This document shows, piece after piece, positions 4,497 through 26,460 of a stretch of 64,000 bases of DNA. The DNA comes from an uncultured Desulfobacteraceae bacterium. Lineage in GTDB: Bacteria > Desulfobacterota > Desulfobacteria > Desulfobacterales > UBA5852. The stretch's first letter is position 1. The number at the start of each line of letters is the position of its first letter. Both the position numbers and the translations under genes were made by a program. The DNA lies in contig CAJXSL010000021.1 of NCBI GenBank assembly GCA_913060875.1, positions 15,017-79,016 on the forward strand, given 5' to 3'. The notes beneath the pieces are model-generated. The model saw only the letters and a program-made list of their open reading frames with translations, did no database searches and was not told the origin of the DNA.

Positions 4497-4860
4497 AACA
4501 TATTCACCACAGAGACACGGTTGGCAAATAAGCCCCAAGCTCAAAGCTCAAAGCTCAAAGCTCAAAGCTCAAAGCTCAAAGCTCAAAGCTCAAAGCTCAA
4601 AGCTCAAAGCTCAAAGAAAAAAAACCGTGCGTAGGAACAGACGTCAAGCAAAAAATTTGATTTATAGAGGAAAAAATAGGAAGTGATGCCTTCGGCAGAG
4701 CTCGAAGCTCAAAGTTGAACCCGCCACCCTGAAAATTCTTTATTCTTTTTTTGTAGTTCCTTGGCGCTTTGAGCTCAGCCTTTAAGCTTGTTTTACCAGC
4801 TTTTCCCCTTTGAGCTTGACCCTTTGTGTTGTTTTTCCCAGGAGCGTTTCGCTCCTTTTC
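4497..4860 (+). repeat. IVS-like CAAAGCT-arm element, ORF-less copy
   Basis: Components: leader tattcaccacagagaca; (CAAAGCT)n at 4536-4616 (about 11-12 units); conserved module at 4617-4680 (ccgtgcgtaggaacagacgtcaagcaaaaaatttgatttatagagg); complementary arm at 4757-4826 (gcgctttgagctcagcctttaagcttg..cctttgagcttgaccctttg); GGAGCG-ttt-CGCTCC hairpin at 4842-4856. Confidence 0.8.
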
Positions 4861-4942
4861 TTATATGAAATCGTCACGTTATTTAATTACCCTATATGGT
4901 TTATTGTAACGATATCCAACCAACCGGGAGGTAAACCACCCC

Positions 4943-7348
4943 ATGCGACGCCGGATACAACTTTTGCTCTGCACCGCTCTCATCCCGCTCATGGTGCTTT
5001 CCTGCAGCGGGCCCGAAGAAAAAAAAGCCAAATTCTTCCAAAAAGGCCAGACCCTTTTTGAGCAGGGCGACTTCACCAAGGCCCGCCTGGAATTCAAGAA
5101 TGCGCTGCAGATCGACCCCGAATATGTCGAAGCCTACTTCATGCTGGGCCGCCTGGAAATGAAAGAAAAAAACTTCAAAAAGGCCTTCGGGTATTTCAGC
5201 AAGACCGTGGAACTCGCCCCGGACTATGACAAAGGACACCTGGAGCTTGGCAAGCTGTTTCTGGCGGCCCGCGCCCTGGACCGGGCCCGTGAGAAGGCCG
5301 ACCTGCTTTTGGCCAAAGATCCGGTCAACAAAGACTACCGCATCCTCCACGCTGCCCTGCTGGTGGCCGAACAAAAATCGGACGCGGCCCAGGAAGCCCT
5401 ACAGGCCCTGCTGGCGGACGGGGTGACCCAACCGGATATCTACTACATGCTGGCCACCAATTATTCCCAAATGAAGCAAGACGCACAGGCCGAGGCCATC
5501 CTGAAGGATGGGATTCAGCAAAACCCGGACTCGACCGCCCTGCACCTTATCCTGGCCCGCTTTTACGCCGGCACCAAACAGCCGGAAAAAGCCATTGGCC
5601 ATGTGGAGCAAGTGATCGCCCTGGAGCCGGACAAAAGCGCCTATAAGCTGACCCTGGCAGGCCTCCAGCGCGATGCCGGCCAGCCTGTGGCCATGGAAAA
5701 AACCCTTCAGGCGCTGCTCCAGGCCGACCCGTCCGATGAGGAAGTCCGTCTGCAGGTGGCCCGCTTCTGGCTCCAGTCCCGCAATCCTGAAAAATGTGAA
5801 CAGGTCCTCCAGGAAGGCCTGGCCACCAACCCGGATAGCTACGACATGCGGCTTTTCCTGGCGGAAGTCTACACCAACACCCAGCGCACCGACCAGGCGG
5901 TCACTGTCCTTCGGGAAGCCCTTGCCATCGGCAAGGATCCGGCCAGCCCGGACAACCTGCGCACGAAAAACAGCCTGGCCAAGGTCTATCTCAAGCGCCA
6001 GGAACCGGAAACCGCCGAACGCCTGGTGGACGAGGTCCTCGCGGAGAGCCCCAAGAACATCGATGCCCAGATGATGAAAGGCAATTTGCGCCTCATGGCC
6101 GGTGACGGTCTGGCAGCCATCACCGCCTTCCGCACGGTCACGGCGGAGAAGCCCGACATGATTCCGGCCCATCTCAGCCTTAGCCAGGCCCACCTGGTGA
6201 ACAAAGAGCCGGCCCTGGCCCTGGACACCCTGCGCCAGGCCGCCACCACCCACCCGAATGCCAAGGAGGTGCGCCTGGCCCTGGCCCGTCTGCATGCCGG
6301 ACGGCAGGAATACGATGCCGCCGAAGCAGAACTCTACAAAATCCTGGCCCAGGACCCTCAGGATCAGAGGGTGCGGGCCAGTCTGGGCGACCTCCAGGCA
6401 GCCCAGGGCAAAAACGATGCGGCCGAGCAGACTTTTATGACCATCCGCGTCCAGGCCCCCAGGATTCCGGCCGGCTACCTGAAACTGGCACAGCTCTACT
6501 GGCGCACGGGCGACAAGGCCAAGGCCGTGGCCACCCTGGAAGACGGCTATTATAAGAACCCCATGTCGGTGCCGCTCTTCACCAACTTGGTACGCATGCA
6601 TCTGGCGGCCCAGAAACAGGACAAAGCCATTGCGCTGTGCCAGGACGCCATCGAGCGGGCACCGGAAAGCGCCTTTCCCTACAATGCCCTGGGCAGCGTG
6701 TTGACCGTCACTAAGGATTATGACGGCGCCCTCGCGGCCTTCAAGCAGGCCATTGAACGCCAGCCCCTGTGGCAGCCTCCCCACAACGGCCTGGCCCGGG
6801 TTTACCTCCTCCAGGGGAAGACCGACGAGGCCATTGCCCGACTGGAAGAAGCTACGGCCACCAACCCAAAAAACCAGGCCGCTTTCCTGACCCTGGCCAA
6901 TCTCTACGAACAGCGAGGGGAAAGCACCAAGGCCATGGAAATCTACAACCAGGCCCTGGAAGCCAACCCCCAAATGTGGGCGGCGGCCAACAACCTGGCC
7001 TTTCTGCTTTCCGAAACCGGCAGCGCTTCGGCCGCGGACCTGGACCGTGCCTCGCTGATGGCCATGAAAGCCTATACGATGCAACCGGAAAATCCAGTGG
7101 TGCTGGATACCATGGGCTGGATTCATTATCGCCGGGGCAACCTCCCCCAGGCCCTGAGCTTTATCGAGCAGGCCGTTGAAAAGAACGACGACAGCCCCAT
7201 CCTCAACTACCACCTGGCGGTGGTACTGCATGAAAGCGGCCGCCCCCTGGAAGCCGAATCCGCCCTCAAGAAAGCCCTGGCCGGCGATGAGGATTTCCAT
7301 GGCCGTGACGCAGCAGATAAACTCATGCAGGAACTTCAGGGGAGTTGA
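4943..7348 (+). CDS. PEP-CTERM-system TPR-repeat lipoprotein (PrsT-like)
   Basis: 801 aa. Lipoprotein signal peptide (..LIPLMVLSCSG). TPR repeats run throughout. RBS gggagg lies upstream. The gene sits inside an exosortase locus. Confidence 0.8.
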   Translation: MRRRIQLLLCTALIPLMVLSCSGPEEKKAKFFQKGQTLFEQGDFTKARLEFKNALQIDPEYVEAYFMLGRLEMKEKNFKKAFGYFSKTVELAPDYDKGHLELGKLFLAARALDRAREKADLLLAKDPVNKDYRILHAALLVAEQKSDAAQEALQALLADGVTQPDIYYMLATNYSQMKQDAQAEAILKDGIQQNPDSTALHLILARFYAGTKQPEKAIGHVEQVIALEPDKSAYKLTLAGLQRDAGQPVAMEKTLQALLQADPSDEEVRLQVARFWLQSRNPEKCEQVLQEGLATNPDSYDMRLFLAEVYTNTQRTDQAVTVLREALAIGKDPASPDNLRTKNSLAKVYLKRQEPETAERLVDEVLAESPKNIDAQMMKGNLRLMAGDGLAAITAFRTVTAEKPDMIPAHLSLSQAHLVNKEPALALDTLRQAATTHPNAKEVRLALARLHAGRQEYDAAEAELYKILAQDPQDQRVRASLGDLQAAQGKNDAAEQTFMTIRVQAPRIPAGYLKLAQLYWRTGDKAKAVATLEDGYYKNPMSVPLFTNLVRMHLAAQKQDKAIALCQDAIERAPESAFPYNALGSVLTVTKDYDGALAAFKQAIERQPLWQPPHNGLARVYLLQGKTDEAIARLEEATATNPKNQAAFLTLANLYEQRGESTKAMEIYNQALEANPQMWAAANNLAFLLSETGSASAADLDRASLMAMKAYTMQPENPVVLDTMGWIHYRRGNLPQALSFIEQAVEKNDDSPILNYHLAVVLHESGRPLEAESALKKALAGDEDFHGRDAADKLMQELQGS

Positions 7349-7354
7349 AAAAAA

Positions 7355-8045
7355 ACGCATATTCACCACAGAGACAGGAGCGCTTTGCGCTCCGTTGAAA
7401 GTTGGAGACAACGGCAAAGCTCAAAGCTCAAAGCTCAAAGCTCAAAGCTCAAAGCTCAAAGCTCAAAGCTCAAAGCTCAAACAAAAAACAGTGCGTAGCA
7501 ACAAACGTCAAGTAAAAATTTTACTTATGAGAGGTAAAAAATAGATTCACGGATCAATAACAAAATGTTTGGATATGAAGAGTTGAAAGTCTGGGATCGA
7601 GCGGTGTCATTTGCCGTAATGGTTATCGAGGCATCGGAGAGCATTGACACCGGCCGGCAGCATTATCGCCTGATAGAACAAATCGAAGCTTCTTCGACCA
7701 GTATTGCGATGAACATAGCCGAAGGTAAAGGTCGATTTTCCAAAAAAGAATTCAAACATTTTTGCTACATTGCCAGGGGCAGTCTGTACGAAACCGCAAC
7801 TCTGCTGGAAATTTTCCACCGTAAAGCCTGGATACCCACGAATACCTATAATGAACTGAAATCCGAAGCCATAGAGATCGCCGCCATGATCAAAGGGCTT
7901 ATCAATTCTCTTCAAACGGAATAAGCTTGTTTGTTTTCCTTTGCGCTTTCATCTTTGAGCTTCTTTTATCGCAGTTCCTTTCAGCTTTGAGCTTTCAGCT
8001 TCGAGCTCTGCTGGAGGCAGCACTTTCAGCTTGACCCTTTTTTTC
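7355..8045 (+). repeat. IVS-like CAAAGCT-arm element, full-length copy with an intact ORF
   Basis: Components: leader tattcaccacagagaca plus GGAGCG-cttt-GCGCTCC hairpin; (CAAAGCT)n at 7415-7480; conserved module at 7482-7540; ORF at 7565-7924; complementary degenerate array at 7937-8040 (ctttgagctt..cctttcagctttgagctttcagcttcgagc..). Confidence 0.8.
7565..7924 (+). CDS. four-helix-bundle protein (23S rRNA intervening-sequence protein family)
   Basis: 119-aa intact ORF MFGYEELKVWDRAVSF..IEQIEASSTSIAMNIAEGKGRFSKKEFKHFCYIARGSLYET..IKGLINSLQTE. This is the family signature. It has close paralogs at 13529-13888 and 26015-26381. Confidence 0.85.
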   Translation: MFGYEELKVWDRAVSFAVMVIEASESIDTGRQHYRLIEQIEASSTSIAMNIAEGKGRFSKKEFKHFCYIARGSLYETATLLEIFHRKAWIPTNTYNELKSEAIEIAAMIKGLINSLQTE

Positions 8046-8130
8046 GATAGTTCCTTGAAACCCAATATAATTAGTGATAATTATTGATAATAAGACCATT
8101 TCTCCAACGGAATCATACCAGAAACTGACA

Positions 8131-8835
8131 ATGAATGACCATGAAGGACGGCATGCACCGATGAATCATCACGATCCTGTTTCAGCACATACCACAATAC
8201 CTGCCCCGCCAAACCCCGACGTTTGCATTAACGGGCTGCGTCCCCTGTTTCTGGGCGTTCTTATTATCTTCATGTTAGGCATTCCGGCCTGGGCCCAGGA
8301 AACACCGGCACCGGAAACGGATCAGCCCTCGTCTACCGCTGCCATACCGGGCCCGGCCTACCGGATCGGGCCGGGGGACGTACTGGATATTTCGGTATGG
8401 AAGGATGAGGCCCTCACCAAGATGATCCCGGTGCTGCCGGACGGTACCATCTCCTTTCCCCTGGTTGGCAAACTCGAGGCCGGCGGCCGCACCCTGGAAG
8501 ATTTCAAGGCGGACCTCGAAAACCGCATTACCCGCTATGTGCCCGACCCGGTGCTTTCGGTCTCGGTCCAGCAGGTCAACAGCATGATGGTCTATGTGAT
8601 CGGTCGTGTGAACAGCCCCGGCCGGGTGATGCTCAACCGCAATGTGACCGCCCTCCAGGCCCTGGCCATGGCCGGAGGGCCCAACCCCTTTGCCAAACGC
8701 AACAAGATCAAAATCTTCCGGGAAGAGACCGATCGGACCCTGATCTTCGATTTCCCCTACGACGACATCAGCCAGGGTGAACACCTGGAGTACAATATCG
8801 AGATGCAGCGCGGCGACGTGATGGTGGTGCCGTGA
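8131..8835 (+). CDS. polysaccharide export protein (Wza/EpsE-like; Poly_export + SLBB)
   Basis: Contains YRIGPGDVLDISVW..LPDGTISFPLVGKLEAGGRTLEDF..VYVIGRVNSPG..TALQALAMAGG. The ORF is open from 8074, but ATG 8131 (or 8161), preceding the signal-like segment, is more plausible. Confidence 0.85.
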   Translation: MNDHEGRHAPMNHHDPVSAHTTIPAPPNPDVCINGLRPLFLGVLIIFMLGIPAWAQETPAPETDQPSSTAAIPGPAYRIGPGDVLDISVWKDEALTKMIPVLPDGTISFPLVGKLEAGGRTLEDFKADLENRITRYVPDPVLSVSVQQVNSMMVYVIGRVNSPGRVMLNRNVTALQALAMAGGPNPFAKRNKIKIFREETDRTLIFDFPYDDISQGEHLEYNIEMQRGDVMVVP

Positions 8836-8870
8836 TGGCGGCTAACAGGACAAGCGGGTGAAGATCGATT

Positions 8871-10142
8871 TTGCGCAATCCCGGATTTGCAATAGCGCCC
8901 CGGTGCGCCGGGGGGCCATCAATCATTGTGGCCCTGCTGCCGACAGTGCTGTTCTTGCTTTTACAGCCCGTGGACGGATGGAGCGACCCGACCCAACTCA
9001 AGCTGACCATGGGGGTGCGACAGGAATACAATGACAACATTTTCTTCGACGAAGACGATGCCGAATCCGACTTCATCACCACCGGTATTTTCGGGGTGGA
9101 CCTGGGCTATGTGGTGGAGCGTCTCCAGGCCCACGCCATCGGACGCTGGGAAGGCTACACCTACCAGGACAACAGCGACCTGGACGACGTTGACCAGGAC
9201 TACCGCCTGACCCTGGACTACCGCTTCACCCCCCGCCTCAAAGGGGGGCTTTCAGGCGCCTACATTCGCGACTTCCGACGGGACCGGGAGGTGGAGACCA
9301 CCGGCGTGGTTTTTGAAAACGAAGAGCGCACCCGCTACCAACTGGATACCGCATGGGAATACCTGCTGACCGAAATTACGGCCCTTAACCTGACGGCGAC
9401 GTACTGGAAAGACGACTACGAGCGGGATCCCACCTTCCAGGAGGAGTTCCGCGACCTGGAAGCCTATGGCGGCAATATCGGATTGTCGCAGGCCCTGAGG
9501 GTATTCAACCGGCCTACCTATGGCCGGCTGAACCTGGGCTACTACAACTACCGCTACGAGTTCAGCGAAACCGACTACTATTACCTGAACCTGGGCTTCA
9601 GTACGCAGCTCAGCGAAACCTACACCCTGCTCCTGGATGCGGGCCCGCGCTATACGGAAAACGAATATCCGGTGACGCGCATCGTGGCGGGCAGCATCCC
9701 GGGCACGTTCCGGATTGTGGCTGAGGAGGAGACCAGCGAGGACTGGGGGGGCAGCGGCCGCCTGTCCTTGGCCTATGCCGGCGAAAAAACCAACTGGGAG
9801 GCGGCCCTGAGCCGGGAAATCACGGCCTCCAGCGGCCAGAACCAGACCGTGGAGCGCACCGAAGCGAGTTTCGACTGGCGCCACTGGTTCACCGGGGAGT
9901 GGCGGGGCATGTTGACCCTGCGTTACTTCAAGAGCGAAAACGATCGGGACGATCCCCTGCTGAGCGATATCGACGAAGACACTTTTGTGGTTCATCCGCG
10001 CATGCTCTACCGGTTCAACCCGGACTGGACCCTCCGGGGCAGCTACCGCTACACCTGGGAAAAGGATAACGAAGACGATACGACCAGAGAACGCAACCAG
10101 GTGATGGTGGAAATGGTCTACAACTGGCCCGTGTGGGAGTAG
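8871..10142 (+). CDS. PEP-CTERM-system-associated outer-membrane beta-barrel candidate
   Basis: 423 aa. Signal-like N-terminus. Alternating aromatic/polar, Y/W/D/R-rich composition typical of beta-barrels. It lies between the export and chain-length genes. The TTG start is uncertain. Confidence 0.6.
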   Translation: MRNPGFAIAPRCAGGPSIIVALLPTVLFLLLQPVDGWSDPTQLKLTMGVRQEYNDNIFFDEDDAESDFITTGIFGVDLGYVVERLQAHAIGRWEGYTYQDNSDLDDVDQDYRLTLDYRFTPRLKGGLSGAYIRDFRRDREVETTGVVFENEERTRYQLDTAWEYLLTEITALNLTATYWKDDYERDPTFQEEFRDLEAYGGNIGLSQALRVFNRPTYGRLNLGYYNYRYEFSETDYYYLNLGFSTQLSETYTLLLDAGPRYTENEYPVTRIVAGSIPGTFRIVAEEETSEDWGGSGRLSLAYAGEKTNWEAALSREITASSGQNQTVERTEASFDWRHWFTGEWRGMLTLRYFKSENDRDDPLLSDIDEDTFVVHPRMLYRFNPDWTLRGSYRYTWEKDNEDDTTRERNQVMVEMVYNWPVWE

Positions 10143-10530
10143 CGCCTTGCGGCAGTGCTCGAAGCGGCTGCCTGCGGCAAAGCTCAAAGCTCAAAGCTCA
10201 AAGCTCAAAGCTCAAAGCTCAAAGCTCAAAGAAAAAAACCGTGCGTAGGAACAAACGTCAATATAAAAATTGATTTTGAGGGGGGAAATAAGCCTTAAAG
10301 CTGAAAGAAAATGCGGTTTGTTCTTTTTACGTCAAGATATGGAAGGAACTTATTCTACCAATCGCAGTGCCCCAGCCCTGCCAAAGGCAGCCGATTGACG
10401 CTTCATGCTCTGCCGTAGCCCGCGTGTTTTTAGCTTGGCTTTTTTGCGATTGCTTTGAGCTTTCAGCTTGACGCTTTGAACTCTGCCGCAGGCAGCCTCT
10501 TTCAGCTTTGAGCTTGGCGCTTTTCCGAAG
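10143..10530 (+). repeat. IVS-like CAAAGCT-arm element, ORF-less copy
   Basis: It begins directly after the stop codon. Components: CTGCC-tgc-GGCA hairpins; (CAAAGCT)n at 10178-10231; conserved module at 10232-10290; shared remnant acttattctaccaatcgca; complementary arm at 10451-10523. Confidence 0.8.
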
Positions 10531-10610
10531 GCCCTAACGAACATAACGATCTAAACTATCGTAACGACCAAAACTAACATAGCTATCCAAACTATTTATC
10601 GGGAATCTCC

Positions 10611-12215
10611 ATGGAACAGGAAACCATCAATCTGAGCGATTTTACCGACATCATCCGCCGGCGGCGCTGGAGTTTCATCCTCCCGGCCGGTGCCATCTTC
10701 CTCCTGGCGGTCCTGGTGGCCCTGGCCCTGTCGCCGGTATACAAGTCCACGGCCACCATCCTGATCGAGGAGCAGGAAATCCCGTCGGATTTCGTCATCA
10801 CCACGGTCACCAGCTACGTGGAGCAGCGCCTCCAGAGCATCAACCAGCGCATCATGAGCTCCACCCGCCTGCTGGAGATCATCGACCGCTTCAACCTCTA
10901 TGCCGACGAGCGCGACAAGCGCACCACCGAAGAAATCGTCGAAAAGATGCGGGAAGACGTGCTGCTGGAACCCATCAGCACCGAAGTCATGGACAAGCGC
11001 ACGGGGCGGGCCACCATGGCCACCATCGCCTTTTCCCTGTCCTACGAAGCCAAGGAGACCCCGGCCAAAGTCCAGAAGGTGGCCTCCCAGTTGACCTCCC
11101 TCTTCCTGGAGGAAAACCTCAAGGTGCGCGAGCGCCAGACCTCGGAGACCTCCCAGTTCCTGCGGGATGAGAGTGCGCGCGTCAAAGCCCAGATGGACCA
11201 GATCGAGGGCGAAATCGCAGTTTTCAAACAGGCCCACATCAACGAACTGCCCGAGATGCTGCAGCTCAACATGCAGGAACTGAGCAATATCGATCGCAAC
11301 ATGGAGCGTTTGCAGGAGAACCTGCGCACCCTCAATCAGCGGGAAGGCTACCTCCAGGCTGAACTTTCCACCACCTCCCCTAAATGGCACAAAAGCTGGG
11401 TTGCTGAAAAAGACGAGGACGTCAAACGCCTGGAGTTCCTTGAAGTCCAGTTGATTTCCCTGAAGACCCGCTATTCCGACGAATACCCGGACGTAGTCAA
11501 AACCGTCCAAGAAATCGACACCATCAAGCGACGTCTGGACGAAGCTGGGGTGGACTACTCCCGCCAAAACGGCAAGGACCACGATACACCGGAAAACCCG
11601 GCCTATATCAGTCTGTCGGCACAACTGAGCGGGGTGCAGTCGGAAATCGAGACCATCAACCGCCAGATCGCCAGTTTCGAGGGCACCGCCCTCCGATACA
11701 AGCAGCGCATTGCCGCCACCCCGGCCGTGGAGGAAACCTACAACGCCCTGCTCTCGCGCCAGGCCAACACCCGCCTGAAATACAACGACCTGCTCCAGAA
11801 AACCATGGAAGCCGAAGTGGCCCAGGGCCTGGAAAAAGACCAGAAGGGCGAGCGCTTCACCCTCATCGACCCGGCCCGCCTGCCGGAAAAACCCTTCAAG
11901 CCCAACCGGCTGGCCATCGTGCTGATCGGTATTGTTTTGGGCATGGGCGCAGGGGTGGGCTGGGCCGCCCTGCGGGAGTTCACGGATGATGCGGTCCACA
12001 ATGCGGAGGCCCTTACCCGCAGCACCGGCTTCCCGGTACTCTCGGGCATTCCGGCCATCATAACCCCGTCCGAAACCGAACACCGGCAGCGCATGCAAAA
12101 AGTCAAAATCATCGCTGCCGTGGCCGCCGTACCGTTGGCCATCGTCATCTTCCATTTTTTTATCATGGACCTGGATATCTTCTGGGCCAAGCTGATGCGA
12201 CGGTTGGGGTTATAG
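10611..12215 (+). CDS. polysaccharide chain-length determinant protein (Wzz/EpsF-like, PEP-CTERM locus type)
   Basis: 534 aa. It has an N-terminal TM helix, a Wzz motif region (..SPVYKSTATILIEEQ..), a long coiled-coil periplasmic domain and a C-terminal TM helix. Confidence 0.85.
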   Translation: MEQETINLSDFTDIIRRRRWSFILPAGAIFLLAVLVALALSPVYKSTATILIEEQEIPSDFVITTVTSYVEQRLQSINQRIMSSTRLLEIIDRFNLYADERDKRTTEEIVEKMREDVLLEPISTEVMDKRTGRATMATIAFSLSYEAKETPAKVQKVASQLTSLFLEENLKVRERQTSETSQFLRDESARVKAQMDQIEGEIAVFKQAHINELPEMLQLNMQELSNIDRNMERLQENLRTLNQREGYLQAELSTTSPKWHKSWVAEKDEDVKRLEFLEVQLISLKTRYSDEYPDVVKTVQEIDTIKRRLDEAGVDYSRQNGKDHDTPENPAYISLSAQLSGVQSEIETINRQIASFEGTALRYKQRIAATPAVEETYNALLSRQANTRLKYNDLLQKTMEAEVAQGLEKDQKGERFTLIDPARLPEKPFKPNRLAIVLIGIVLGMGAGVGWAALREFTDDAVHNAEALTRSTGFPVLSGIPAIITPSETEHRQRMQKVKIIAAVAAVPLAIVIFHFFIMDLDIFWAKLMRRLGL

Positions 12216-12242
12216 ATTTGCCTGCGGCAAATCTATAACCCC
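12206..12242 (+). terminator. perfect 17-bp-stem hairpin overlapping the wzz-like stop codon (no T-tract)
   Basis: ggggttatagatttgcc-tgc-ggcaaatctataacccc. TAG 12213-12215 lies inside the 5' stem. It may act as a terminator or processing site, but there is no U-run. Confidence 0.4.
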
Positions 12243-12480
12243 AAGCTGAAAGGGACTGCGAAAAGATCGAAATATAAAATGGGAAAATAAGAAAAAGCTC
12301 AAAGCGGCAACCTGTAGGTTTTATCTATTTTCCTAATTCACTATTTTCCAATTTCTTGTTTTTGCCCTGTCTTTAAGCTTGGCGCTGCTTTTAACGCAGT
12401 TCCTTTGAGCTTTCAGCTTTGAGCTTCGAGCCCTGCCGCAGGCAGCCCTTTGAGCTTTCAGCTTGACGCTTTGAGCTTCA
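12243..12480 (+). repeat. CAAAGCT-family element, mainly the complementary (GAGCTTT) arm
   Basis: 12373-12478 reads cttggcgctgcttttaacgcagttcctttgagctttcagctttgagcttcgagccctgccgcaggcagccctttgagctttcagcttgacgctttgagc. Short sense units (aagctgaaagg, aaagctcaaagcgg) lie at 12243-12325. Confidence 0.75.
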
Positions 12481-12577
12481 TTATTGGCCTAAGGCCCCAA
12501 CTATCAAACTAACGAAACTATCAAGACTATCTTAACTGTCTACCATATTAACTCTTTAAACGATTATAAGGTACCCC

Positions 12578-13324: not shown

Positions 13325-13339
13325 GGACGAAGGCTCAGA

Positions 13340-14030
13340 GGGCCTGAGCTCAAAGCTCAAAGCTCAAAGCTCAAAGCTCAAAGCTCAAAGAAAACCGTGC
13401 GTAGGAACAGACGTCAAGCAAAAAATTTGATTTATAGAGGGAAATAAGCCTGAAGCTGAAAGCTGAAAGCTGAAAGGAAAACCTAAAACAAAGGGCAAAA
13501 TCAAATAAATTCGAAAATCAATAATCAAGCGTTTGGATATGAAGATCTTAAAGTTTGGGATCGAGCGGTGTCATTTGCCGTAATGGTTATCGACGCAACA
13601 GAATGTATTGACACCAGCCGGCAGCATTATCGTCTGATCGAGCAAATCGAAGCCTCCTCGACAAGTGTTGCCATGAACATTGCAGAAGGCAAAGGGCGTT
13701 TCTCCCTCAAGGAATTCAAACATTTTTGCTACATTTCCAGGGGCAGCCTGTACGAGACCATGACGCTACTGGAAATATTTCATCGTAAAGACTGGATATC
13801 TTCGGCGAAATATGACGAGTTAAAAGCGGAAGCCATTGAGATCGCCGCAATGATCAAAGGGCTTATCAATTCTCTTCGAACGGAATGAGCTTGTTTGTTT
13901 TCCTTCGCGCTTTACGATTTTAGGAAGTTCCTTTGAGCTTTCAGCTTGACGCTTTGAGCTTGTTTTTTCTCCCTTTGAGCTTTCAGCTTGGCGCTTCTTT
14001 TCATCGCTGTTCCTTTGAGCTTATTTCCCG
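13340..14030 (+). repeat. IVS-like CAAAGCT-arm element, full-length copy
   Basis: Components: (CAAAGCT)n at 13346-13390; conserved module at 13391-13445; (GAAAGCT)3 at 13449-13477; ORF; complementary arrays at 13929-14023. Confidence 0.8.
13568..13888 (+). CDS. four-helix-bundle protein paralog; ancestral ATG replaced (GCG at 13529-13531)
   Basis: Homology to the 7565 copy starts at 13532 (FGYEDLKVWDRAV..), but the codon aligned to its ATG is GCG. The first usable in-frame starts are GTG 13568 and ATG 13583. It is possibly a decaying copy. Confidence 0.6.
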   Translation: MSFAVMVIDATECIDTSRQHYRLIEQIEASSTSVAMNIAEGKGRFSLKEFKHFCYISRGSLYETMTLLEIFHRKDWISSAKYDELKAEAIEIAAMIKGLINSLRTE

Positions 14031-14753: not shown

Positions 14754-14755
14754 GA

Positions 14756-14818
14756 ACTGCCTTCGGCAGAGCTCAAAGCGGCTGCCTTTGGCAGAGCTCA
14801 AAGCTGAAAGCTCAAAGG
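14756..14818 (+). repeat. CAAAGCT-family half element (sense units only)
   Basis: The segment is ctgccttcggcagagctcaaagcggctgcctttggcagagctcaaagctgaaagctcaaagg. It is followed by aaaagcagaaaagagaaattaggaaaataag. Confidence 0.7.
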
Positions 14819-14925
14819 AAAAGCAGAAAAGAGAAATTAGGAAAATAAGTGTGCGACATGTAAATGGTTTGGTTTTCCATCCCAGTTACCTATTTCGCTA
14901 TTTTCTATTTGACTGAATTTCGACC

Positions 14926-15498: not shown

Positions 15499-15513
15499 AA
15501 GAAGGGGGATCCC

Positions 15514-15960: not shown

Positions 15961-15984
15961 CCCCGAATACATCATGAAGCTAAA

Positions 15985-16283
15985 AAAAGCTCAAAGCTCA
16001 AAGCTCAAAGCTCAAAGCTCAAAGCTCAAAGCTCAAAGCTCAAAGCTCAAAGAAAAAACCAGCACAGAGAAACAAACGTCAAGCAAAAAATTTGTTTTAG
16101 AGAGAAAAAAAACGATTCGCGGATCAATAACCAAGTATTTGGGCATGAAGAGTTGAAAAGCACTTATTCTACCAATCGCAATGGCCCGGAAAAAAATCAG
16201 TCACCGGCCATATCTATTGCTTCGAGCCTTGCTGTAGGCAGTCCCTTTCAGCTTTCAGCTTTGAGCTCTGCCGAAGGCAGCCG
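15985..16283 (+). repeat. IVS-like CAAAGCT-arm element with an internally deleted ORF
   Basis: Components: (CAAAGCT)n at 15985-16052; conserved module; ORF leader and first codons (gattcgcggatcaataaccaagtatttgggcatgaagagttgaaa), then a jump to acttattctaccaatcgca; complementary arm at 16221-16283. Confidence 0.8.
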
Positions 16284-16944
16284 CCTCATACGCCGTGTCC
16301 GCCGGCAGGTTCGGCCGGGACATGGCCTGACCGGCCAATTGATCACAACGCTCGTTCCATTCATGCCCGGCATGGCCCTTGACCCATCTGAATTCCACCT
16401 GCAGGGATCCCAGCCGGTCCAGAAGCCGCTTCCATAGATCCGGGTTTTTGGCCGGGTTGCCGTCCGCTTTTTTCCATCCCTTTTTTTTCCAGCCAAACAC
16501 CCATTTTTTATTGATGGCGTCCACCATGTAGCGGGAATCGCTGTGCAGGACAACGGGTCGGTCCCCTTCCAGGTGTTCCAATGCCACGATGCAGGCCATG
16601 AGCTCCATGCGGTTGTTGGTGGTCCGCCGGTAGCCTCCGGATAATTCCTGCCTGTCCCCCTGGGGAGAAATGATCACAACCCCGTACCCTCCGGGGCCCG
16701 GGTTGCCGATGGCGCCGCCGTCGGTATAGACCACCACTCGGGTGCCGTCGTCTGGCTGGGATTTCTTGGCGGAGGGCCGGCCTTCGCTCAAAAAGGCTTC
16801 CGCCTCTCCGCGGGTAGGGAATCCCCGATATTGTGCTCCGGCAAATCCCTGCACCTGAATTTGAGCGCCTTCCGGCCCGAACCATTCTCTGAATATACCG
16901 GTCTTGTGCCCCCGTCGGACGGCATAAAATTTCTTTTTGGCCAC
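16255..16944 (-). CDS. rnhA: ribonuclease HI with N-terminal hybrid-binding domain
   Basis: KKFYAVRRGHKTGIFREWFG..FPTRGEAEAFL is an RNase H1-type N-terminal domain. VVVYTDGGAIGNPGPGGYG..TNNRMELMA..WVKGHAGHEWNERCD is the catalytic domain. GTG 16944 with RBS aggaaa is preferred over TTG 16962. Confidence 0.9.
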   Translation of the reverse strand: MAKKKFYAVRRGHKTGIFREWFGPEGAQIQVQGFAGAQYRGFPTRGEAEAFLSEGRPSAKKSQPDDGTRVVVYTDGGAIGNPGPGGYGVVIISPQGDRQELSGGYRRTTNNRMELMACIVALEHLEGDRPVVLHSDSRYMVDAINKKWVFGWKKKGWKKADGNPAKNPDLWKRLLDRLGSLQVEFRWVKGHAGHEWNERCDQLAGQAMSRPNLPADTAYEAAAFGRAQS

Positions 16945-17149: not shown

Positions 17150-17290
17150 CAGGGTTTTGGGCCTTGAGCCTGTTGGAGGTCTTGGGCCTTCGGCCGTTGG
17201 AGGTTTTGGGCCTTCGGCCGTTTGAGGTATATGGTTTGAGGATTTTTTGCCTTCACCCTCCAACCTCAGACCTCCAACAGCTTGCGCAGC
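17150..17290 (+). repeat. short hairpin element with TTGGAGGT/TTGGGCC units and complementary CCTCCAAC units
   Basis: Left units: tgttggaggtcttgggccttcggccgttggaggttttgggccttcggccgtttgaggt. Complementary units: caccctccaacctcagacctccaac. Confidence 0.7.
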
Positions 17291-17329
17291 AAACCTCTTT
17301 GAGCTTTTCCCTATTTCCATATTTTCTGA

Positions 17330-17436
17330 TTTCTCCTTTCTGCTTTTCCTTTGAGCTTTCAGCTTTGAGCTCTGCCGCAGGCAGCCGCTTTGAGCTTTCA
17401 GCTTTCAGCTTCGAGCTCTGCCGCAGGCAAGAGCGC
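17330..17436 (+). repeat. CAAAGCT-family element, complementary (GAGCTTT) arm only
   Basis: The segment is ctgcttttcctttgagctttcagctttgagctctgccgcaggcagccgctttgagctttcagctttcagcttcgagctctgccgcaggca. Confidence 0.75.
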
Positions 17437-17438
17437 TT

Positions 17439-18353: not shown

Positions 18354-18381
18354 GTTGGAGGTTGGAGGATTGAGGAATGGG
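18354..18381 (+). repeat. GTTGGAG-type array (outer left arm)
   Basis: The array is gttggag gttggag gattgag gaatggg. Complementary units (cccctccaacctctaacgcc) lie at 18937-18956. Confidence 0.6.
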
Positions 18382-18389
18382 CGAAAAAA

Positions 18390-18775
18390 AAGTATTCACC
18401 ACAGGGACACAGAGGGGGACTATAAGCGCCAAGCTCAAAGCTCAAAGCTCCAAGCTCAAAGCTCCAAGCTCAAAGCTCCAAGCTCAAAGCTCAAAGCTCC
18501 AAGCTCCAAGCTCAAAGAAAAAATAGTGCGTATAAACAAACGTCAAGCAAAAAATTTGACTTTGAGATGAAAAAAATCGATTTGCGGATCAATAACCAAG
18601 TATTTGGCTATGAGGAATCTCCAGGTTTTCGGGTTCAGCTTTGAGCTTGAAGCTTTTGTTGCCGCAGTTCCTTTGAGCTTTGAGCTTGGCGCTTTGAGCT
18701 CTGCCAAAGGCAGTCCTTTCAGCTTGGCGCTGCTTTTCTCCGTGCCTCGAGCGCAGCGGGTGGTTAAAACTATAG
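18390..18775 (+). repeat. IVS-like CAAAGCT/CCAAGCT-arm element with an internally deleted ORF
   Basis: Components: leader gtattcaccacagggaca; mixed (CAAAGCT/CCAAGCT)n at 18430-18517; conserved module; ORF leader plus about 5 codons (gatttgcggatcaataaccaagtatttggctatgagg), then the complementary arm at 18634-18735. Confidence 0.8.
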
Positions 18776-18936
18776 TAATCAGTGAATAAGAAAACAGGCG
18801 ATTGGGTACGGATGGGAAACAGGAAATTGGAAATTAGGGAGATCGGAAACTCCAGGGAAGCAACATTAGCCAACACCATGTTTTCATAATTTTTTTACTA
18901 TTTACCTTATACTCTTTTTTCTAATTGGCTGGCATT

Positions 18937-19003
18937 CCCCTCCAACCTCTAACGCCAGAAGGCCCAAGCCCGCCAACGGGTCGCAGGCCCAATACCCAGG
19001 CCC
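18937..19003 (+). repeat. CCTCCAAC / GGCCCAA-type array (outer right arm)
   Basis: cccctccaacctctaacgccagaaggcccaagcccgccaacgggtcgcaggcccaatacccaggccc is the reverse complement of the TTGGAGG and TTGGGCC units seen at 17165-17250 and 18354-18381. Confidence 0.6.
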
Positions 19004-20064: not shown

Positions 20065-20125
20065 ATACCGTTTCTGGACTTCCAGCGTTTTTTCACCTCT
20101 CCACCTCGCACCCTACGGTAGGACC

Positions 20126-20329
20126 GTGGCTACGGTCTATCTTTGGGGCGGCAAGGAGCTGAATCTTGAGATCCTGAAGGCTGGGTTGGCATGGCACTAT
20201 AAGCGGTACTCAGATAGGCAGGACTATGCTGAAGCTGAGGAGATCGCCCGAAGGGCTGGGTACGGACTGTGGATTGATAGGAACCCTACGCCGCCATGGA
20301 AATGGCGGCGGGATAGGCGGAAGACGTAA
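20126..20329 (+). pseudogene. thermonuclease (SNase-like) C-terminal fragment
   Basis: 67 aa: ..ELNLEILKAGLAWHYKRYSDRQDYAEAEEIARRAGYGLWIDRNPTPPWKWRR. This matches only the last third of staphylococcal-nuclease-like proteins. The catalytic N-terminal part is absent. Confidence 0.55.
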
Positions 20330-20371
20330 GGGTTTCACGGAATGATCTGATCACTATAAGAGGAGGGATCT

Positions 20372-21745: not shown

Positions 21746-21789
21746 CACCACCCCGGTACTCGGGTTAACACCCTCGTGCCGTTAGTACG

Positions 21790-21957
21790 CCACCGGAATG
21801 TCCGCAGGACGTTCTCGCCGTCTTGTCGGACGATAACAGGTATTTTCTGGGTCGGAGCTACATTGTAGTTTGGGGACAGGATGGCTTCGACCCGGTGGAT
21901 GGGGTAGTGCTCCCGAAGCGCTTCGATATTCCGATATCCCACGAATCGTCCGCACAC
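21790..21957 (-). pseudogene. SOS-response-associated peptidase (SRAP/YedK) 5' fragment
   Basis: A GTG start gives (M)CGRFVGYRNIEALREHYP..LSPNYNVAPTQKIPVIVRQDGENVLRTFRW. This has the canonical MCGRF N-terminus and NVAPTQ motif. Similarity is lost after about 56 codons, and the frame runs into the 3' end of the phosphatase gene. Confidence 0.6.
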
Positions 21958-22301
21958 AAAGGTGCCTCCTGAGGGTTCGATTAGATCCTGCTGGTCAAGA
22001 TAAGGATGATGATATTGGATGTGACACACAGTGTTCAAGAAAAATGGGGGGAATCCGTGTGCGATATCCTATATGGTGGGGTGGTATGGTTTCCCCGGAT
22101 GGGGGTACCGGGTGACACCTCCCCCGCCCCCCCTTTTTATTTAAGACGATGCATTAAAAAGCGCTTGGCACGTCCGATTTGAATGATGTGGTATCAGAGG
22201 TCCGAAAAAGCAAGGTTCAACCAGTGTGGGACTATAGTGGGACAGAATGGCTTTCAAACAAAAATAGGTCACAGCTAAGTGCTGTAACCCATTGATTTTA
22301 A

Positions 22302-22379
<78 letters not shown>

Positions 22380-22610
22380 AACGTGTTGTGAATTCAACGA
22401 AGAGCTTCATAAGCCAATCCCCGTTCGATGTCAACGACAAATTGGCATTTGTTCCCTAACGGCATCTTCCCATCTTTCGGACCCGAAGGCCCCGCCCTTG
22501 TGCGGTCAAACCGTCCATCAACCTGATCCATATCATTTGCGTTCTTGCCTATTCGTCAATAATCCTCTATTAGAGTCGGGTTCATCCGAATTGACAGTCC
22601 CATCGAAGGT

Positions 22611-23075
22611 ATGGATAAAAACCGACATCATATCGACTGCATGCGTATGGCCCTGGAAGAGGCCCGCCAAGCCGCTGAAGAGCAGGAAGTCCCTGTGGGG
22701 GCGGTGCTGGTTGCCGAGGATGGCGATATCCTGGCCAGGACCCACAACCGCACCATTGGCGACAATGATCCCACCGCCCATGCCGAGATATTGGCCATCC
22801 GACAGGCAGCGGTACGTCTGCAAAACTACCGGTTGTTAAACACATCCCTCTATGTTACGGTCGAACCTTGCCTGATGTGCATGGGCGCCATCATACATGC
22901 GCGGATCCAGCGGGTTTTTTTTGGAACCCGGGATCCCAAATGGGGCGCCGCAGGATCTCTATACAACCTTGGCGAAGACCGCCGGCTGAACCATCACCCT
23001 GAAATTATGGAAGGTCTGCTGCTGGATGAATGCCGTAATTTAATCCAGGGGTTTTTCCGTGCGCGCCGCCGCTGA
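22611..23075 (+). CDS. tadA: tRNA adenosine(34) deaminase
   Basis: It has the motifs VPVGAVLV, DPTAHAEILAIR and TVEPCLMCMGAI (the CDA zinc motifs HAE / PCxxC). 154 aa. Confidence 0.9.
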   Translation: MDKNRHHIDCMRMALEEARQAAEEQEVPVGAVLVAEDGDILARTHNRTIGDNDPTAHAEILAIRQAAVRLQNYRLLNTSLYVTVEPCLMCMGAIIHARIQRVFFGTRDPKWGAAGSLYNLGEDRRLNHHPEIMEGLLLDECRNLIQGFFRARRR

Positions 23076-23113
23076 TGCTGTCATCTAAAATACGCCTGCG
23101 GCAGCGATACTAA

Positions 23114-24430
<1,317 letters not shown>

Positions 24431-24508
24431 CGGCCTGCGGCAGGTCGCCAAGCTGAACGCTCTTATAAAAAAAGGGCCTGCTGCAGTGGTCGTTTTGGGT
24501 ATTTCGAT

Positions 24509-24558
24509 GTCGACGCGAAGCGTCGCCCTTTCAGCTTGACGCTTTGAGCTTGGTGCTT
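24509..24558 (+). repeat. CAAAGCT-family fragment (complementary arm) with a CGACGCGAAGCGTCG hairpin
   Basis: The fragment is gtcgacgcgaagcgtcgccctttcagcttgacgctttgagcttggtgc. The same hairpin plus ctttcagcttgg occurs at 17078-17110. Confidence 0.7.
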
Positions 24559-24690
24559 TTTCCATGAATGATTAAACCGGCACCAGCCGGCGGCTTCGCT
24601 CAAAGGGAATTTAAACGAAACATCCATCCCAACTATCGGGAAAAACTGATTGACTTTTTAAGCCGTCTGCAATATTGAACCTTTTCTTGT

Positions 24691-24767
24691 CGGGAAGTGG
24701 CTCAGCCTGGTAGAGCACAGCGTTCGGGACGCTGGGGTCGCTGGTTCAAATCCAGTCTTCCCGACCA
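24691..24767 (+). tRNA. tRNA-Pro (anticodon CGG)
   Basis: CGGGAAGTGGCTCAGCCTGGTAGAGCACAGCGTTCGGGACGCTGGGGTCGCTGGTTCAAATCCAGTCTTCCCGACCA. The anticodon arm is CAGCG-TTCGGGA-CGCTG. Confidence 0.9.
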
Positions 24768-24780
24768 CAATTACCAACCT

Positions 24781-24817
24781 AAGGTCGATTCGTCATAGCG
24801 GATCGACCTTCTTTTTT
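24781..24817 (+). terminator. rho-independent terminator after tRNA-Pro
   Basis: aaggtcgat-(12 nt loop)-atcgacctt, followed by cttttttg. Confidence 0.65.
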
Positions 24818-24852
24818 GAAAGCATGCGACCAATTTGCCCCCGCGAGGAAAT

Positions 24853-25311
24853 ATGACGGAAGACAACTTTACCTATGAAGTTCGCTGCGAAACCTGCCGC
24901 AGCCGATTTAAAGTTCAACTTTTCGAAAGTCACGAAAGAAACCTGTTTCTGGTGGACAAAAAAGACTGGTATTGCGATAAATGCAAAACCGCCTATGCCC
25001 GCCGGCAAACCGCCCAATTGTCCCAGGCCCACCAGGAAATCGGATTTCCGGAACTGACCGGCTCAGCTAAAATGCTCACCTGGGCTGAAAAAGTTCGTGC
25101 CGAATTGATCAACAAGGTCAACTACCTCAAGCAGAATATCACCCACGCCGATGCTGCGGCCGAAAAACTAAGCAATGACGCTTTCGATAGCTTTTTCATG
25201 GAATGGCAGGCCCAAACCAGCGCCAAGTGGTGGATCGACAACCGCCGCATGACCGTGCGCGATATTTCCAAACGCATCGCGGAAATCTCCGCATCGCTCA
25301 AAAAATCTTGA
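24853..25311 (+). CDS. hypothetical zinc-ribbon protein
   Basis: ATG 24853 follows gaggaaat. It has CETC...CDKC cysteine pairs. No recognisable family. Confidence 0.55.
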   Translation: MTEDNFTYEVRCETCRSRFKVQLFESHERNLFLVDKKDWYCDKCKTAYARRQTAQLSQAHQEIGFPELTGSAKMLTWAEKVRAELINKVNYLKQNITHADAAAEKLSNDAFDSFFMEWQAQTSAKWWIDNRRMTVRDISKRIAEISASLKKS

Positions 25312-25390
25312 CCTCGCCGTGTGATCGCACTATAAATCGCCGTAAAGTTTATGCACTATATCCCAATACCCTTTCACCGGAGGCACAATC

Positions 25391-25822
25391 ATGGCGCCCA
25401 TAAATAATACATCCGAATTAGAGGCCCTGCTCGACGCATGGTCGGATCCTGCGTCGCAGACCAAGACGACATTTCTGGAACTGAAAAAACACCTCGCCAG
25501 CAAACCGGAGGTGGAACTCGACTTTGTGGCGCGCCCCGGCGTGACCTACTCCCTGCGGGCCAAACATGTGCGTCAGAACAAACGCCCCCTATTCGCCATG
25601 GTCGATATCATCGATGACGATCCGGACGACCGCTGGCTCTCGGTCTGCTTTTTCGGCGAAATGATTACCGATCCCGATGAAATCGGTGATTTTGTCCCCG
25701 AGGGTCTGATGGGAGAGGATGCCCATTGCTTCGACATCGAAGAGCGCAATGAACGCCTCAATCAATACGTGACCATGCGCCTCGACGAGGCCTATGGGAG
25801 TGCCGCGGCGGGAGAAGCCTAG
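25391..25822 (+). CDS. hypothetical protein
   Basis: 143-aa ORF with typical local codon usage. RBS ggagg upstream. No family recognised. Confidence 0.55.
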   Translation: MAPINNTSELEALLDAWSDPASQTKTTFLELKKHLASKPEVELDFVARPGVTYSLRAKHVRQNKRPLFAMVDIIDDDPDDRWLSVCFFGEMITDPDEIGDFVPEGLMGEDAHCFDIEERNERLNQYVTMRLDEAYGSAAAGEA

Positions 25823-25834
25823 CGGCTAAGAAAG

Positions 25835-26460
25835 GCAGCGCCAAGCTCAAAGCGTCAAGCTGAAAGGACTGCCTTTGGCAGAGCTCAAAGCGGCAAGCTC
25901 AAAGCTGAAAGCCCAAAGCTCAAAGGGACGGCAATAACAAGAAGCGTGAAGCCCAAAGCTGAAAGCTCAAAGGAACTTCCTAAAATCGTAAAGCGCGAAG
26001 GAAAACAAACAAGCTCATTCCGTTCGAAGAGAATTGATAAGCCCTTTGATCATGGCGGCGATCTCTATGGCTTCGGATTTCAGTTCCGAATAGGTATTCG
26101 TGGGTATCCAGGCTTTACGATGAAAAATTTCCAGCAGAGTGGTGGTTTCGTATAGGCTGCCCCTGGCAATGCAGCAAAAATGTTTGAATTCTTTTCTGGA
26201 AAATCGACCTTTGCCTTCGGCTATGTTCATCGCAACACTTGTCGAGGAGGCTTCGATTTGCTCGATCAAACGATAATGCTGCCGGCCCGGTGTCAATGCT
26301 CTCCGATGCGTCGATAACCATGACGGCAAATGAGACCGCACGATCCCATACTTTCAACTCTTCATATCCAAACTGTTGCATAGCTCTACCCTAGTCGCTG
26401 ATTGCTCCAAGGTCTTAATGGTTTTCCTTTCAGCTTTCAGCTTTGAGCTTTGAGGCTTCA
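25835..26460 (-). repeat. IVS-like CAAAGCT-arm element, inverted orientation, carrying a frameshifted ORF
   Basis: 25835-26010 is the mirror of the right arm of the 13340-14030 copy (..ggaacttcctaaaatcgtaaagcgcgaaggaaaacaaacaagc). 26425-26455 is the mirror of the left arm (cctttcagctttcagctttgagctttgagg). Confidence 0.8.
26015..26381 (-). pseudogene. four-helix-bundle protein paralog with a +1 frameshift
   Basis: MQQFGYEELKVWDRAVSFAVMVIDASESIDTG (frame A) and RQHYRLIEQIEASSTSVAMNIAEGKGRF..INSLRTE (frame B) are separated by one extra base. The plus-strand ccc at 26286-26288 corresponds to cc at the aligned position of the intact 7565 copy. Confidence 0.8.

Follow-up and report, generated by a model that had tools for sequence, protein, structure and literature searches.

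Nearly all gaps among the genes of the first ~25 kb (about a dozen junctions) of the 64,000-nt stretch analyzed here (the window; contig CAJXSL010000021.1 of an uncultured Desulfobacteraceae bacterium) are occupied by repeat elements of one family, in which a gene for a four-helix-bundle protein, or what remains of it, lies between arms of tandem heptamers. On balance, we lean toward the view that these are copies and remnants of a hairpin-forming selfish cassette, similar to the intervening sequences (IVSs) of 23S rRNA and residing in transcribed gene junctions. Such a cassette would consist of a PF05635/TIGR02436 gene of roughly 120 aa between inverted arms, with AAGCT[C/G]A units 5' of the open reading frame (ORF) and their complement 3', and would occupy the exact stop-to-start gap of co-oriented genes, mostly in surface-polysaccharide operons; judging from this position, it is presumably co-transcribed with its neighbors. 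It may have spread between genomes as a unit of ORF plus arms and, in this Desulfobacterales-like lineage, would have settled long ago in a dozen junctions within a single 25-kb region. Its copies would since have changed by slippage of units, to which the perfection of the left arrays and the differing copy number of two assemblies would be due, by loss of the ORF through internal deletion, by nesting into and by other hairpin elements, and probably by gene conversion guided by the arms.

Extent and Architecture of the Elements

The 14-mer AAGCTCAAAGCTCA, with at most two mismatches allowed, was found 89 times in the window against an expectation of 0.40, and a motif-free lag scan revealed 13 period-7 tracts within 1-26.5 kb and none later, with essentially nothing at other lags. 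Past 26.5 kb the 14-mer gave only two matches, each with 2 mismatches and chance-like; both searches thus agree with a first-pass annotation of this DNA, in which no array had been seen beyond about 26.5 kb. Tandem Repeats Finder reported (AAGCTCA)n arrays on the forward strand, 5-12 units long and with 100% unit identity, and degenerate CTTTGAG/CTTTCAG arrays downstream of them; across the window elements the left arrays are perfect and the right arms degenerate. Tandem 7-nt units, intergenic, in varying copy number and in paired arms are also what defines the heptameric repeats of other bacteria. At 11 of 12 sites the AAGCTCA-sense strand has the same direction as the gene upstream, the remaining site being ambiguous. 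All copies were located between or inside protein-coding genes and not in helix 9, 25 or 45 of 23S rRNA.

The host genes at the start of the window form an exosortase/PEP-CTERM-type exopolysaccharide locus, encoding an XrtD-EpsI fusion, a GT4 glycosyltransferase, a PrsT-like TPR protein, a polysaccharide export protein, an outer-membrane barrel, a chain-length determinant and a tyrosine autokinase. Next to this locus come housekeeping genes (RNase HI, acyltransferase, SpoIIE phosphatase, deaminase, purA, two tRNAs and a PAS-LuxR regulator). An Rfam scan of the window returned three tRNAs only and no family covering the heptamer elements, while promoter and terminator predictions were as numerous as in shuffled sequences, so that the conserved core has no promoter support. 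PADLOC defence models gave no match, and no close relative of the elements was found among viral contigs and phage records.

Alignment of eight copies revealed a common ordered plan, namely an optional leader, (AAGCTCA)n, a core, the ORF or its remnant, and a right arm. The leader ATATTCACCACAGAGAC is present in some copies only, the core comprises 60 nt (AAAAAACCGTGCGTAGGAACAAACGTCAAGCAAAAAATTTGATTT...) with 69-94% identity among copies, and the right arm consists of complementary heptamers interspersed with 13-nt palindromes of the form CTGCC-NNN-GGCAG. The copies listed in the first-pass annotation do exist at or near the positions it gave. Three of them retain the ORF over its length. J3 (7349..8045, forward strand) is complete, with the leader at 7359-7375, (AAGCTCA)9.6 at 7415-7481, the core at 7482-7545, an ORF at 7565-7924 that is indeed intact (119 aa, PF05635) and a right arm at 7925-8040. 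J7 (13325..14030, forward strand) carries (AAGCTCA)6 at 13347-13390, a core, (AAGCTGA)3, an ORF at 13529-13888 and a right arm at 13889-14025; the previously noticed change of ATG to GCG was found at 13529, the ORF being otherwise open. J14 (25823..26460, reverse strand) is inverted and co-oriented with the reverse-strand PAS-LuxR gene, the TGA stop codon of which abuts the first unit. It has no core, and the +1 frameshift noted before in its ORF (26015-26380, reverse strand) was traced to a 1-nt insertion (GACACCGGGCCGG).

Internal deletion is seen in two further forward-strand copies, where the alignment bears out the retention of the ORF leader and first codons that had been noted at 15985-16283 and 18390-18775. 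J10 (15961..16290) comprises (AAGCTCA)9.6 at 15986-16052, the core, the ORF leader with the first codons and a short right arm, and J12 (18390..18790) an array of alternating AAGCTCA and AAGCTCC units at 18431-18517, the core, the ORF leader and a right arm. J2 and J5 are arm pairs without ORF on the forward strand. The former (4497..4870) shows the leader ATATTCACCACAGAGAC, (AAGCTCA)11 at 4537-4616, a core at about 4617-4680 and a degenerate right arm at about 4698-4830, and the latter (10143..10530) begins right after a stop codon, with an array at 10178-10231, a core and a right arm at 10440-10525. Two supposed single arms turned out to have partners, since J6 (12216..12480, forward strand), previously recorded as an arm at 12243-12480, has vestigial left units at 12243-12310 next to its long right arm at 12370-12480, and J13 (24440..24560, forward strand), situated after purA and upstream of tRNA-Pro and recorded at 24509-24558, is a mini arm pair with a tiny left partner at about 24443-24460 and the right arm at 24527-24558. 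J8 (14754..14836, forward strand) is a left arm only, in which 1.9 copies of the 25-mer unit CTGCCTTCGGCAGAGCTCAAAGCGG accompany heptamers. Finally, the arm annotated at 17330-17436 exists as J11 (17323..17438, reverse strand), lying right after the stop codon of the reverse-strand acyltransferase gene with its AAGCTCA sense on that strand, and can now be specified as left-type relative to the flanking reverse-strand genes.

Perfect arrays in an exopolysaccharide locus could suggest contingency repeats, by which slippage would tune the expression of surface polysaccharide (phase variation). A second assembly of the same population (L001) shows no mismatch over 15.9 kb and differs solely in its J2 array, which has 13 instead of 11 units; this two-unit difference fits slippage, although an assembly artefact is also possible. 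However, the arrays follow stop codons and lie outside coding frames and promoter spacers, housekeeping junctions carry them too, and neither the inverted partner arm nor the ORF would be explained. We therefore give phase variation hardly any credence.

The Encoded Protein and Its Selection

Profile searches assigned the ORF to PF05635 (Pfam E = 3.2e-30 and 2e-29) and TIGR02436 (E = 4.1e-31), and XCC0516 (PDB 2GSC, E = 4e-9) and 2RLD are solved relatives of its product. The ORF encodes an S23p-type four-helix-bundle protein and no transposase, so that the full-length copy does not represent the autonomous transposon that it had been taken for. In addition, no transposase or reverse transcriptase domain was detected among the 39 window ORFs scanned with Pfam, a set that takes in the small ORFs in part.

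Pairwise ratios of nonsynonymous to synonymous substitution rates (dN/dS) among the three window ORF copies and a copy from a related contig (L003) were 0.10-0.16. The copies have diverged under strong purifying selection, a result at odds with the simple decay of the ORFs that was first proposed, and, measured against the divergence of the copies, the loss of the start codon in J7 and the frameshift in J14 are therefore recent. Furthermore, dS was 0.27 between J3 and J14 vs. 0.46 between J3 and its ortholog in L003, which dates the J14 ORF to after the species split. Its site already held arms before the ORF arrived, as indicated by the arm that follows the PAS-LuxR ortholog of a relative. 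The low dS of J14 and its older arms suggest that the ORF may have been passed between arm pairs by gene conversion.

Orthologous Junctions in Relatives

For the chain-length determinant, identities of 82, 77, and 76% were obtained to proteins from Desulfobacteraceae and Desulfobacterales metagenome-assembled genomes (MAGs), and the 284-kb contig L003 carries an orthologous locus with genes 88-93% identical at the nucleotide level. At J3, this contig has kept the ORF with an arm of three units, the core being gone. At J7 it has a right-arm remnant only, while the window copy includes the ORF, and at J8 it shows a full arm pair with core in place of the single arm of the window. J2, J5, and J7 carry heptamers of another family, GGTTKGA/CCTCCAAC, and four junctions contain an inverted-repeat element of roughly 190 bp, of the CACAGAG type, the end of which corresponds to the leader of the window copies; only the ends of this element survive in the window. 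In another relative (L011, 82%), AAGCT[C/G]A arm pairs were found at J5, J6, and J7, and in a third (L165) an AAGCTCA arm directly follows the stop codon of an 86% identical PAS-LuxR ortholog. That ortholog was considered as a possible empty J14 site and rejected, as its contig enters the arm after the stop codon and ends there. A locus at 77% (L012) was searched for AAGCT[C/G]A arrays and two other repeat motifs, and none was found.

At most orthologous junctions an arm of some kind is present in both genomes, and empty sites were not encountered. The sites are thus old and largely shared, while their contents turn over by gain and loss of the ORF, substitution of one repeat family by another, and nesting. 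The first-pass annotation had proposed a proliferation of the elements, to be refuted by finding the same copies, with conserved sequence, at the same junctions of related genomes. The sites are indeed shared, whereas sequence and content are not conserved, and since most junctions are armed in L003, L011, and L165 too, occupancy is old and does not reflect a recent burst. As a side observation, the J2 unit difference and the end of the L165 contig inside an arm point either to variation of the arrays within the population or to assembly breaks caused by them.

A classical MITE (miniature inverted-repeat transposable element) family, mobilized in trans by a transposase encoded elsewhere and carrying the four-helix-bundle ORF as cargo, would also have small and numerous members with terminal inverted repeats, some of them internally deleted or nested, as found here, and L003 contains a clear CACAGAG-type inverted-repeat element with five copies at the same junctions. 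What holds of the MITE-like interpretation given at first is that full, deleted and arm-only members belong to one family, share an ordered architecture and have been mobile over evolutionary time. However, transposases are missing from the scanned ORFs of the 64 kb, and no target-site duplication was evident by eye at five compact copies, the ends of which are ill-defined owing to the repetitive arms. The copies are also clustered within 25 kb instead of being dispersed, insertion is precisely stop-to-start and always co-oriented, and the would-be cargo is under strong purifying selection. The arm sequence itself appears to be conserved across phyla, which counts against decay of the MITE type as well. 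We consider a MITE origin improbable.

Homologs and Heptamer Flanks in Other Phyla

Homologs of the ORF with 65-76% identity occur both in Planctomycetota and in other Desulfobacterota, their carriers including 'Candidatus Wujingus' (Brocadiaceae, Planctomycetota), a Scalinduaceae MAG, a CG12 deltaproteobacterium and further contigs. They are preceded by 2-4 AAGCT[C/G]A units, which start at or over the upstream stop codon, and followed by 2-6 complementary units, which end 0-25 nt before the next start codon; the genes next to them are co-oriented and have sugar-modifying functions (DegT, epimerases, PA14/PMT_2, NeuB). Identity between the adjoining DegT proteins is only 29-33%, compared to 73-76% for the four-helix-bundle proteins. 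Given that the ORF recurs with the same arms beside unrelated or divergent neighbors, ORF and arms move as a unit over evolutionary time. Neutral flanks should be randomized at such divergence, and it therefore appears that the arm sequence is either conserved or carried along with the ORF.

The association with heptamers extends to more distant members of the family. Among 23 four-helix-bundle genes from four phyla (130-bp flanks, lags 4-12, 100 shuffles), the best tandem period was 7 in 18 upstream and 21 downstream flanks, and inverted complementarity of the flanks exceeded all 100 shuffles in about 16 cases. Within loci of 3-21.6 kb, period-7 tracts were mostly located at the four-helix-bundle gene or at neighboring gene junctions. 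Arm units were GGTTTTA/CTTAAAAC at junction 1 of L003 and in a Geobacteraceae exopolysaccharide locus (15 perfect units in the latter), GGTTYAA in Riemerella, GGGTGTA in Calothrix, GGTGACA in Anabaena sp. 90 (between cas6 and cas4) and GGGAGTA in Nostoc edaphicum, while Pseudanabaena has direct (AAAGCTA)n and (AAAGCCA)n arrays. The cas6-cas4 gap of a CRISPR-cas operon houses a four-helix-bundle gene bordered at either end by long heptamer arrays in two cyanobacterial plasmids, Pseudanabaena galeata pPg_01 (L169) and Anabaena sp. 90 pANA02 (L172), and in N. edaphicum the gene lies between two ribonucleotide reductase subunit genes. The Geobacteraceae locus (L021, a MAG), which is of the type orthologous to the exopolysaccharide locus of the window, has junction hairpins of GGAGTCA, GGCAATG/CCCATTG, and GGTTTTA units at 1526-1581, 7656-7726, and 11572-11784, which looks like parallel colonization by different unit families.

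Alternatively, heptamer arrays or hairpins may exist beforehand and be invaded by the ORF at their apex or in the middle of the array, through homology-driven gene conversion that drags flanking units along. Such a course would agree with the excess of ORF-less arm pairs over ORF copies, with the J14 ORF being younger than the arms at its site, with the nesting of elements in the center of other hairpin elements, and with the Pseudanabaena copy, which divides direct arrays. A four-helix-bundle gene that is just 30% identical (L095) likewise sits in AAGCTCA arms. Furthermore, IVSs take the place of rRNA-helix tetraloops (PMC4990558), and many bacteria show an over-representation of heptameric simple-sequence repeats that is not tied to any gene (PMC4679880, PMC4692102). 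However, compact copies of other phyla have arms next to the ORF alone, free arrays being scarce or absent in their vicinity, and the type of arm follows the ORF clade across 65-76% identity. We hold this route to be doubtful.

The array by itself is a poor guide to the cassette. When (AAGCTCA)4 was used as a lone probe in metagenomes, more than 119 matches were obtained, with a GC content of 0.33-0.71, and one only lay beside a four-helix-bundle gene; many matches resemble eukaryotic foldback elements or plain microsatellites, and the array alone is therefore not diagnostic. The foldback elements (L056, L068, L080, L093, L106) consist of (AAGCTCA)4-5 facing (TGAGCTT)2-3, with conserved outer ends GGGGTGACATTTTCGAA..., on contigs that are microsatellite-rich and apparently eukaryotic. 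They are probably unrelated to the bacterial cassette despite the identical heptamer.

Predicted Pairing of the Arms

RNA folding predicted pairing of left and right arms, with z-scores of -3.7, -5.5, -2.4, and -2.8 for four window copies, J5 giving the strongest hairpin (z = -5.5). Left-right pairs of 14-87 bp were predicted in all 10 elements folded, from six lineages, the stem extending to the start codon, and the predicted stems of compact copies (27-36 bp) would be long enough for RNase III. The ORF is therefore bracketed, in prediction, by complementary stem-forming sequences as in an IVS. In the cassette that we favor, the arms would pair around the ORF up to its start codon, and RNase III would probably cut the stem, by analogy with the 23S rRNA IVSs, rendering the insertion tolerable within operons.

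The same pairing could serve the host, with the arms being selected as intercistronic RNA hairpins for processing, stability or translational coupling and the ORF an occasional passenger of the loop. The presence of arms at identical junctions of relatives at 82-90% identity would be expected in that case, as would the 11 of 12 sites at which the AAGCTCA sense follows the upstream gene and the extension of predicted stems to start codons. Repeat families also interchange at one and the same junction, as though any hairpin sufficed, and the inverted GGGAATC heptamer pairs of Xanthomonas are likewise positionally conserved and transcribed (PMC4692102). However, the arms recur together with the ORF beside unrelated genes in other phyla, their content and length are highly unstable, G-U wobble is not enriched, the L012 loci at 77% lack AAGCT[C/G]A arrays and the two other motifs searched, and the second glycan island of the window has no elements. 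A host function of the arms thus seems to us unlikely, although it deserves to be kept in mind.

Several observations weigh against the selfish cassette as well. Mismatches between the arms show no G-U bias (41 of G-U type vs. 48 of A-C type, with 150 transversions) and are mostly C/G transversions, so that nothing specifically favors an RNA-level stem over a DNA-level inverted repeat. The window copies have no obvious Shine-Dalgarno sequence. Searches brought to light neither a mobility enzyme nor a target-site duplication nor a clean empty site, and the conserved occupancy of junctions among relatives is also compatible with a host function. The elements are limited to 25 kb of the window and do not occur in its second glycosyltransferase island. 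Finally, the cross-phylum sample is small and was partly judged by eye, and in one cyanobacterial case (Pseudanabaena) the heptamer arrays are direct and not inverted.

Further Repeat Families and Neighboring Features

The window also contains features that are absent from the first-pass annotation, namely an arm remnant at 1380-1510, a second cassette at 2190-2858 and further repeat families. The remnant (1380..1510, forward strand) shows CAGAAGT-type units followed by AAGCTCA units that include a palindromic CTGCCTGCGGCAG mini-hairpin. Its in-frame translation (...IAQSSKQLPAAERQAQSVKLKATSEKQKKE...) forms the EpsH-EpsI linker of the XrtD exosortase-EpsI fusion (ORF 537-2189), and the NCBIfam XrtD model matches as two stretches, one on either side of the heptamer linker. 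The linker thus looks like an exonization of a junction element. A comparison of exosortases was of no use for dating this insertion, because the two proteins are just 35% identical and not orthologs.

The second cassette (2190..2858, forward strand) belongs to another family. It has a left arm of 8-mers (GGGAATTG/GGTTAATTG) at 2198-2257, a four-helix-bundle pseudogene at 2352-2753 with an in-frame TAG at about 2559-2561, and a complementary right arm of the CAATTGG/CCCAATC type at about 2770-2855. Its protein is of a different clade, 37% identical to the main one, and its 8-mer arms resemble the GGGAATC repeats of Xanthomonas. At the equivalent spot of L003, after a non-orthologous exosortase, there is a cassette of yet another clade, which has an internal stop codon too.

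Hairpins of the GGTTKGA type were found at 17153-17290 (the GGTTKGA/CCTCCAAC hairpin adjoining J11), 18354-18368, and 18925-18990, in which 3.1 copies of the 24-mer GGTTTTGGGCCTTCGGCCGTTGGA face CCTCCAAC units. An inverted-repeat element of the CACAGAGAC type is represented in the window by its ends only (4502, 7361, and 18394-18790), and the AAGCTCA element of J12 is nested between two such ends, the CACAGAGAC-type element being intact in L003. The CACAGAG-type element of L003 (7596-8004, 8383-8640, 14680-14880, and 18290-18480) has ends TTCACCACAGAGACAC...GTGTCTCGAGCGCAGCGGGTGGTGAA and internal hairpins, and its five copies lie within 11 kb; between two of them a PDDEXK_3 gene has been inserted.

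The convergent RNase HI gene (reverse strand) has its stop codon inside the right arm of J10 (16255-16290). Element DNA therefore encodes the C-terminal tail of this protein, which has 235 aa compared to 227 aa in L003. At 10535-10595 and 12499-12531, 9-mers (TAACGAACA/AACTATC-type) occur in runs, downstream of right arms and directly upstream of the start codons of two genes, those for the chain-length determinant and the tyrosine kinase, and comparable AACT/TAAC-rich leaders are present in L011 and L003. Farther downstream, a low-GC island (0.35-0.45) at 49000-57500 contains glycan-related genes (UDP-GlcNAc 2-epimerase, GT2, PMT_2, and two LPG_synthase_TM genes) and is free of the repeats.

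Relation to Known Systems and Significance

The S23p-type IVSs, which go back in the literature to the early 1990s (Ralph and McClelland, 1993, as cited in PMC4990558), carry an ORF within an inverted-repeat stem that is cleaved by RNase III, and are considered selfish and possibly mobile (PMC4990558). As in the 23S rRNA IVSs of Leptospira, Coxiella, and Brucella, a PF05635 protein is encoded here in the loop of a long predicted stem, and both show a sporadic distribution hinting at horizontal transfer and a selfish nature, the ORF of the IVSs often having a poor ribosome-binding site (PMC4990558). Unlike these IVSs, the elements described here reside in gaps between protein genes, have arms of tandem heptamer arrays and include many copies and ORF-less derivatives in a single locus, and their excision by RNase III would be analogous.

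Tandem heptanucleotides were described early on in Calothrix (STRR sequences) and later in Xanthomonas and Nostoc (PMC4692102). They include inverted GGGAATC pairs in Xanthomonas and GGGGAYT in Nostoc (PMC4692102) as well as direct TAACTGA repeats in Beggiatoaceae (PMC4679880). In Xanthomonas and Nostoc the intergenic heptamers are over-represented, and convergent pairs keep their position while varying in length (PMC4692102). The window elements share with such repeats the variable unit number, the often convergent arrangement, the conservation of position as length and sequence vary, and a presumably transcribed setting, and the second cassette even has GGGAATC-like units. In contrast to the published repeats, the arrays in the window and in the 23 sampled cases bracket a PF05635 gene or its remnant. 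PMC4692102 and PMC4679880 make no mention of S23, four helix or intervening, so that a link to PF05635 was apparently not drawn there. The multicopy sequences of Geobacter metallireducens were rejected as relatives, as they consist of other heptamers (GGGACCG, MTYCTGA) and do not belong to the AAGCTCA family.

Two further systems were compared. The accessory protein Avd of diversity-generating retroelements has been assigned to the 23S rRNA-intervening-sequence/four-helix-bundle family, PF05635 (PMC10053308); its binding partners are the reverse transcriptase and the template RNA (PMC8632793). The likeness lies in this family membership as given in the literature. Unlike the context of Avd, the window has no reverse transcriptase among its scanned ORFs; template/variable repeat pairs were not searched for.

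The Correia elements of Neisseria, the enterobacterial ERIC sequences and REP/BIME are short inverted repeats in operon spacers, which are co-transcribed and form hairpins that are processed by RNases and alter the stability of the flanking mRNA. They have defined, non-repetitive terminal repeats, Correia elements being associated with a TA target duplication and REP with a dedicated RAYT transposase; REP/BIME are imperfect palindromes of roughly 35 bp accompanied by a genomic RAYT (IS200/IS605-like) gene. No RAYT gene was found in the 64-kb window. To our knowledge, none of these elements carries a four-helix-bundle gene.

No description linking heptamer arrays to PF05635 genes was found in the literature and, as far as our searches go, the novelty lies in seeing a known protein family and a known type of repeat combined as a gene-junction cassette. 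A more far-reaching proposal, which we put forward tentatively and regard as rather unlikely at present, is that heptamer-armed PF05635 cassettes constitute one cross-phylum mobile class uniting the rRNA IVSs, the STRR/Xanthomonas-type repeats and operon-junction hairpins, and that the protein, as a pentamer, might recognize 7-nt arrays in RNA or single-stranded DNA and promote processing or spread into hairpin apices. The extension to other phyla is based on a small sample of 23 genes.

We know of no accepted origin or function for either the S23p IVSs or the heptamer repeats. If bracketing by heptamers and movement as a unit are general, the rRNA IVSs would be the rRNA-resident subset of a larger class of elements, at least some heptamer repeats would be footprints of the cassette, and the protein would gain a testable ligand in the 7-nt arrays. 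In practical terms, this would account for the 'four helix bundle protein' genes and odd repeats annotated in polysaccharide, CRISPR-cas and other operons, and for the contig breaks that affect assemblies at such loci.

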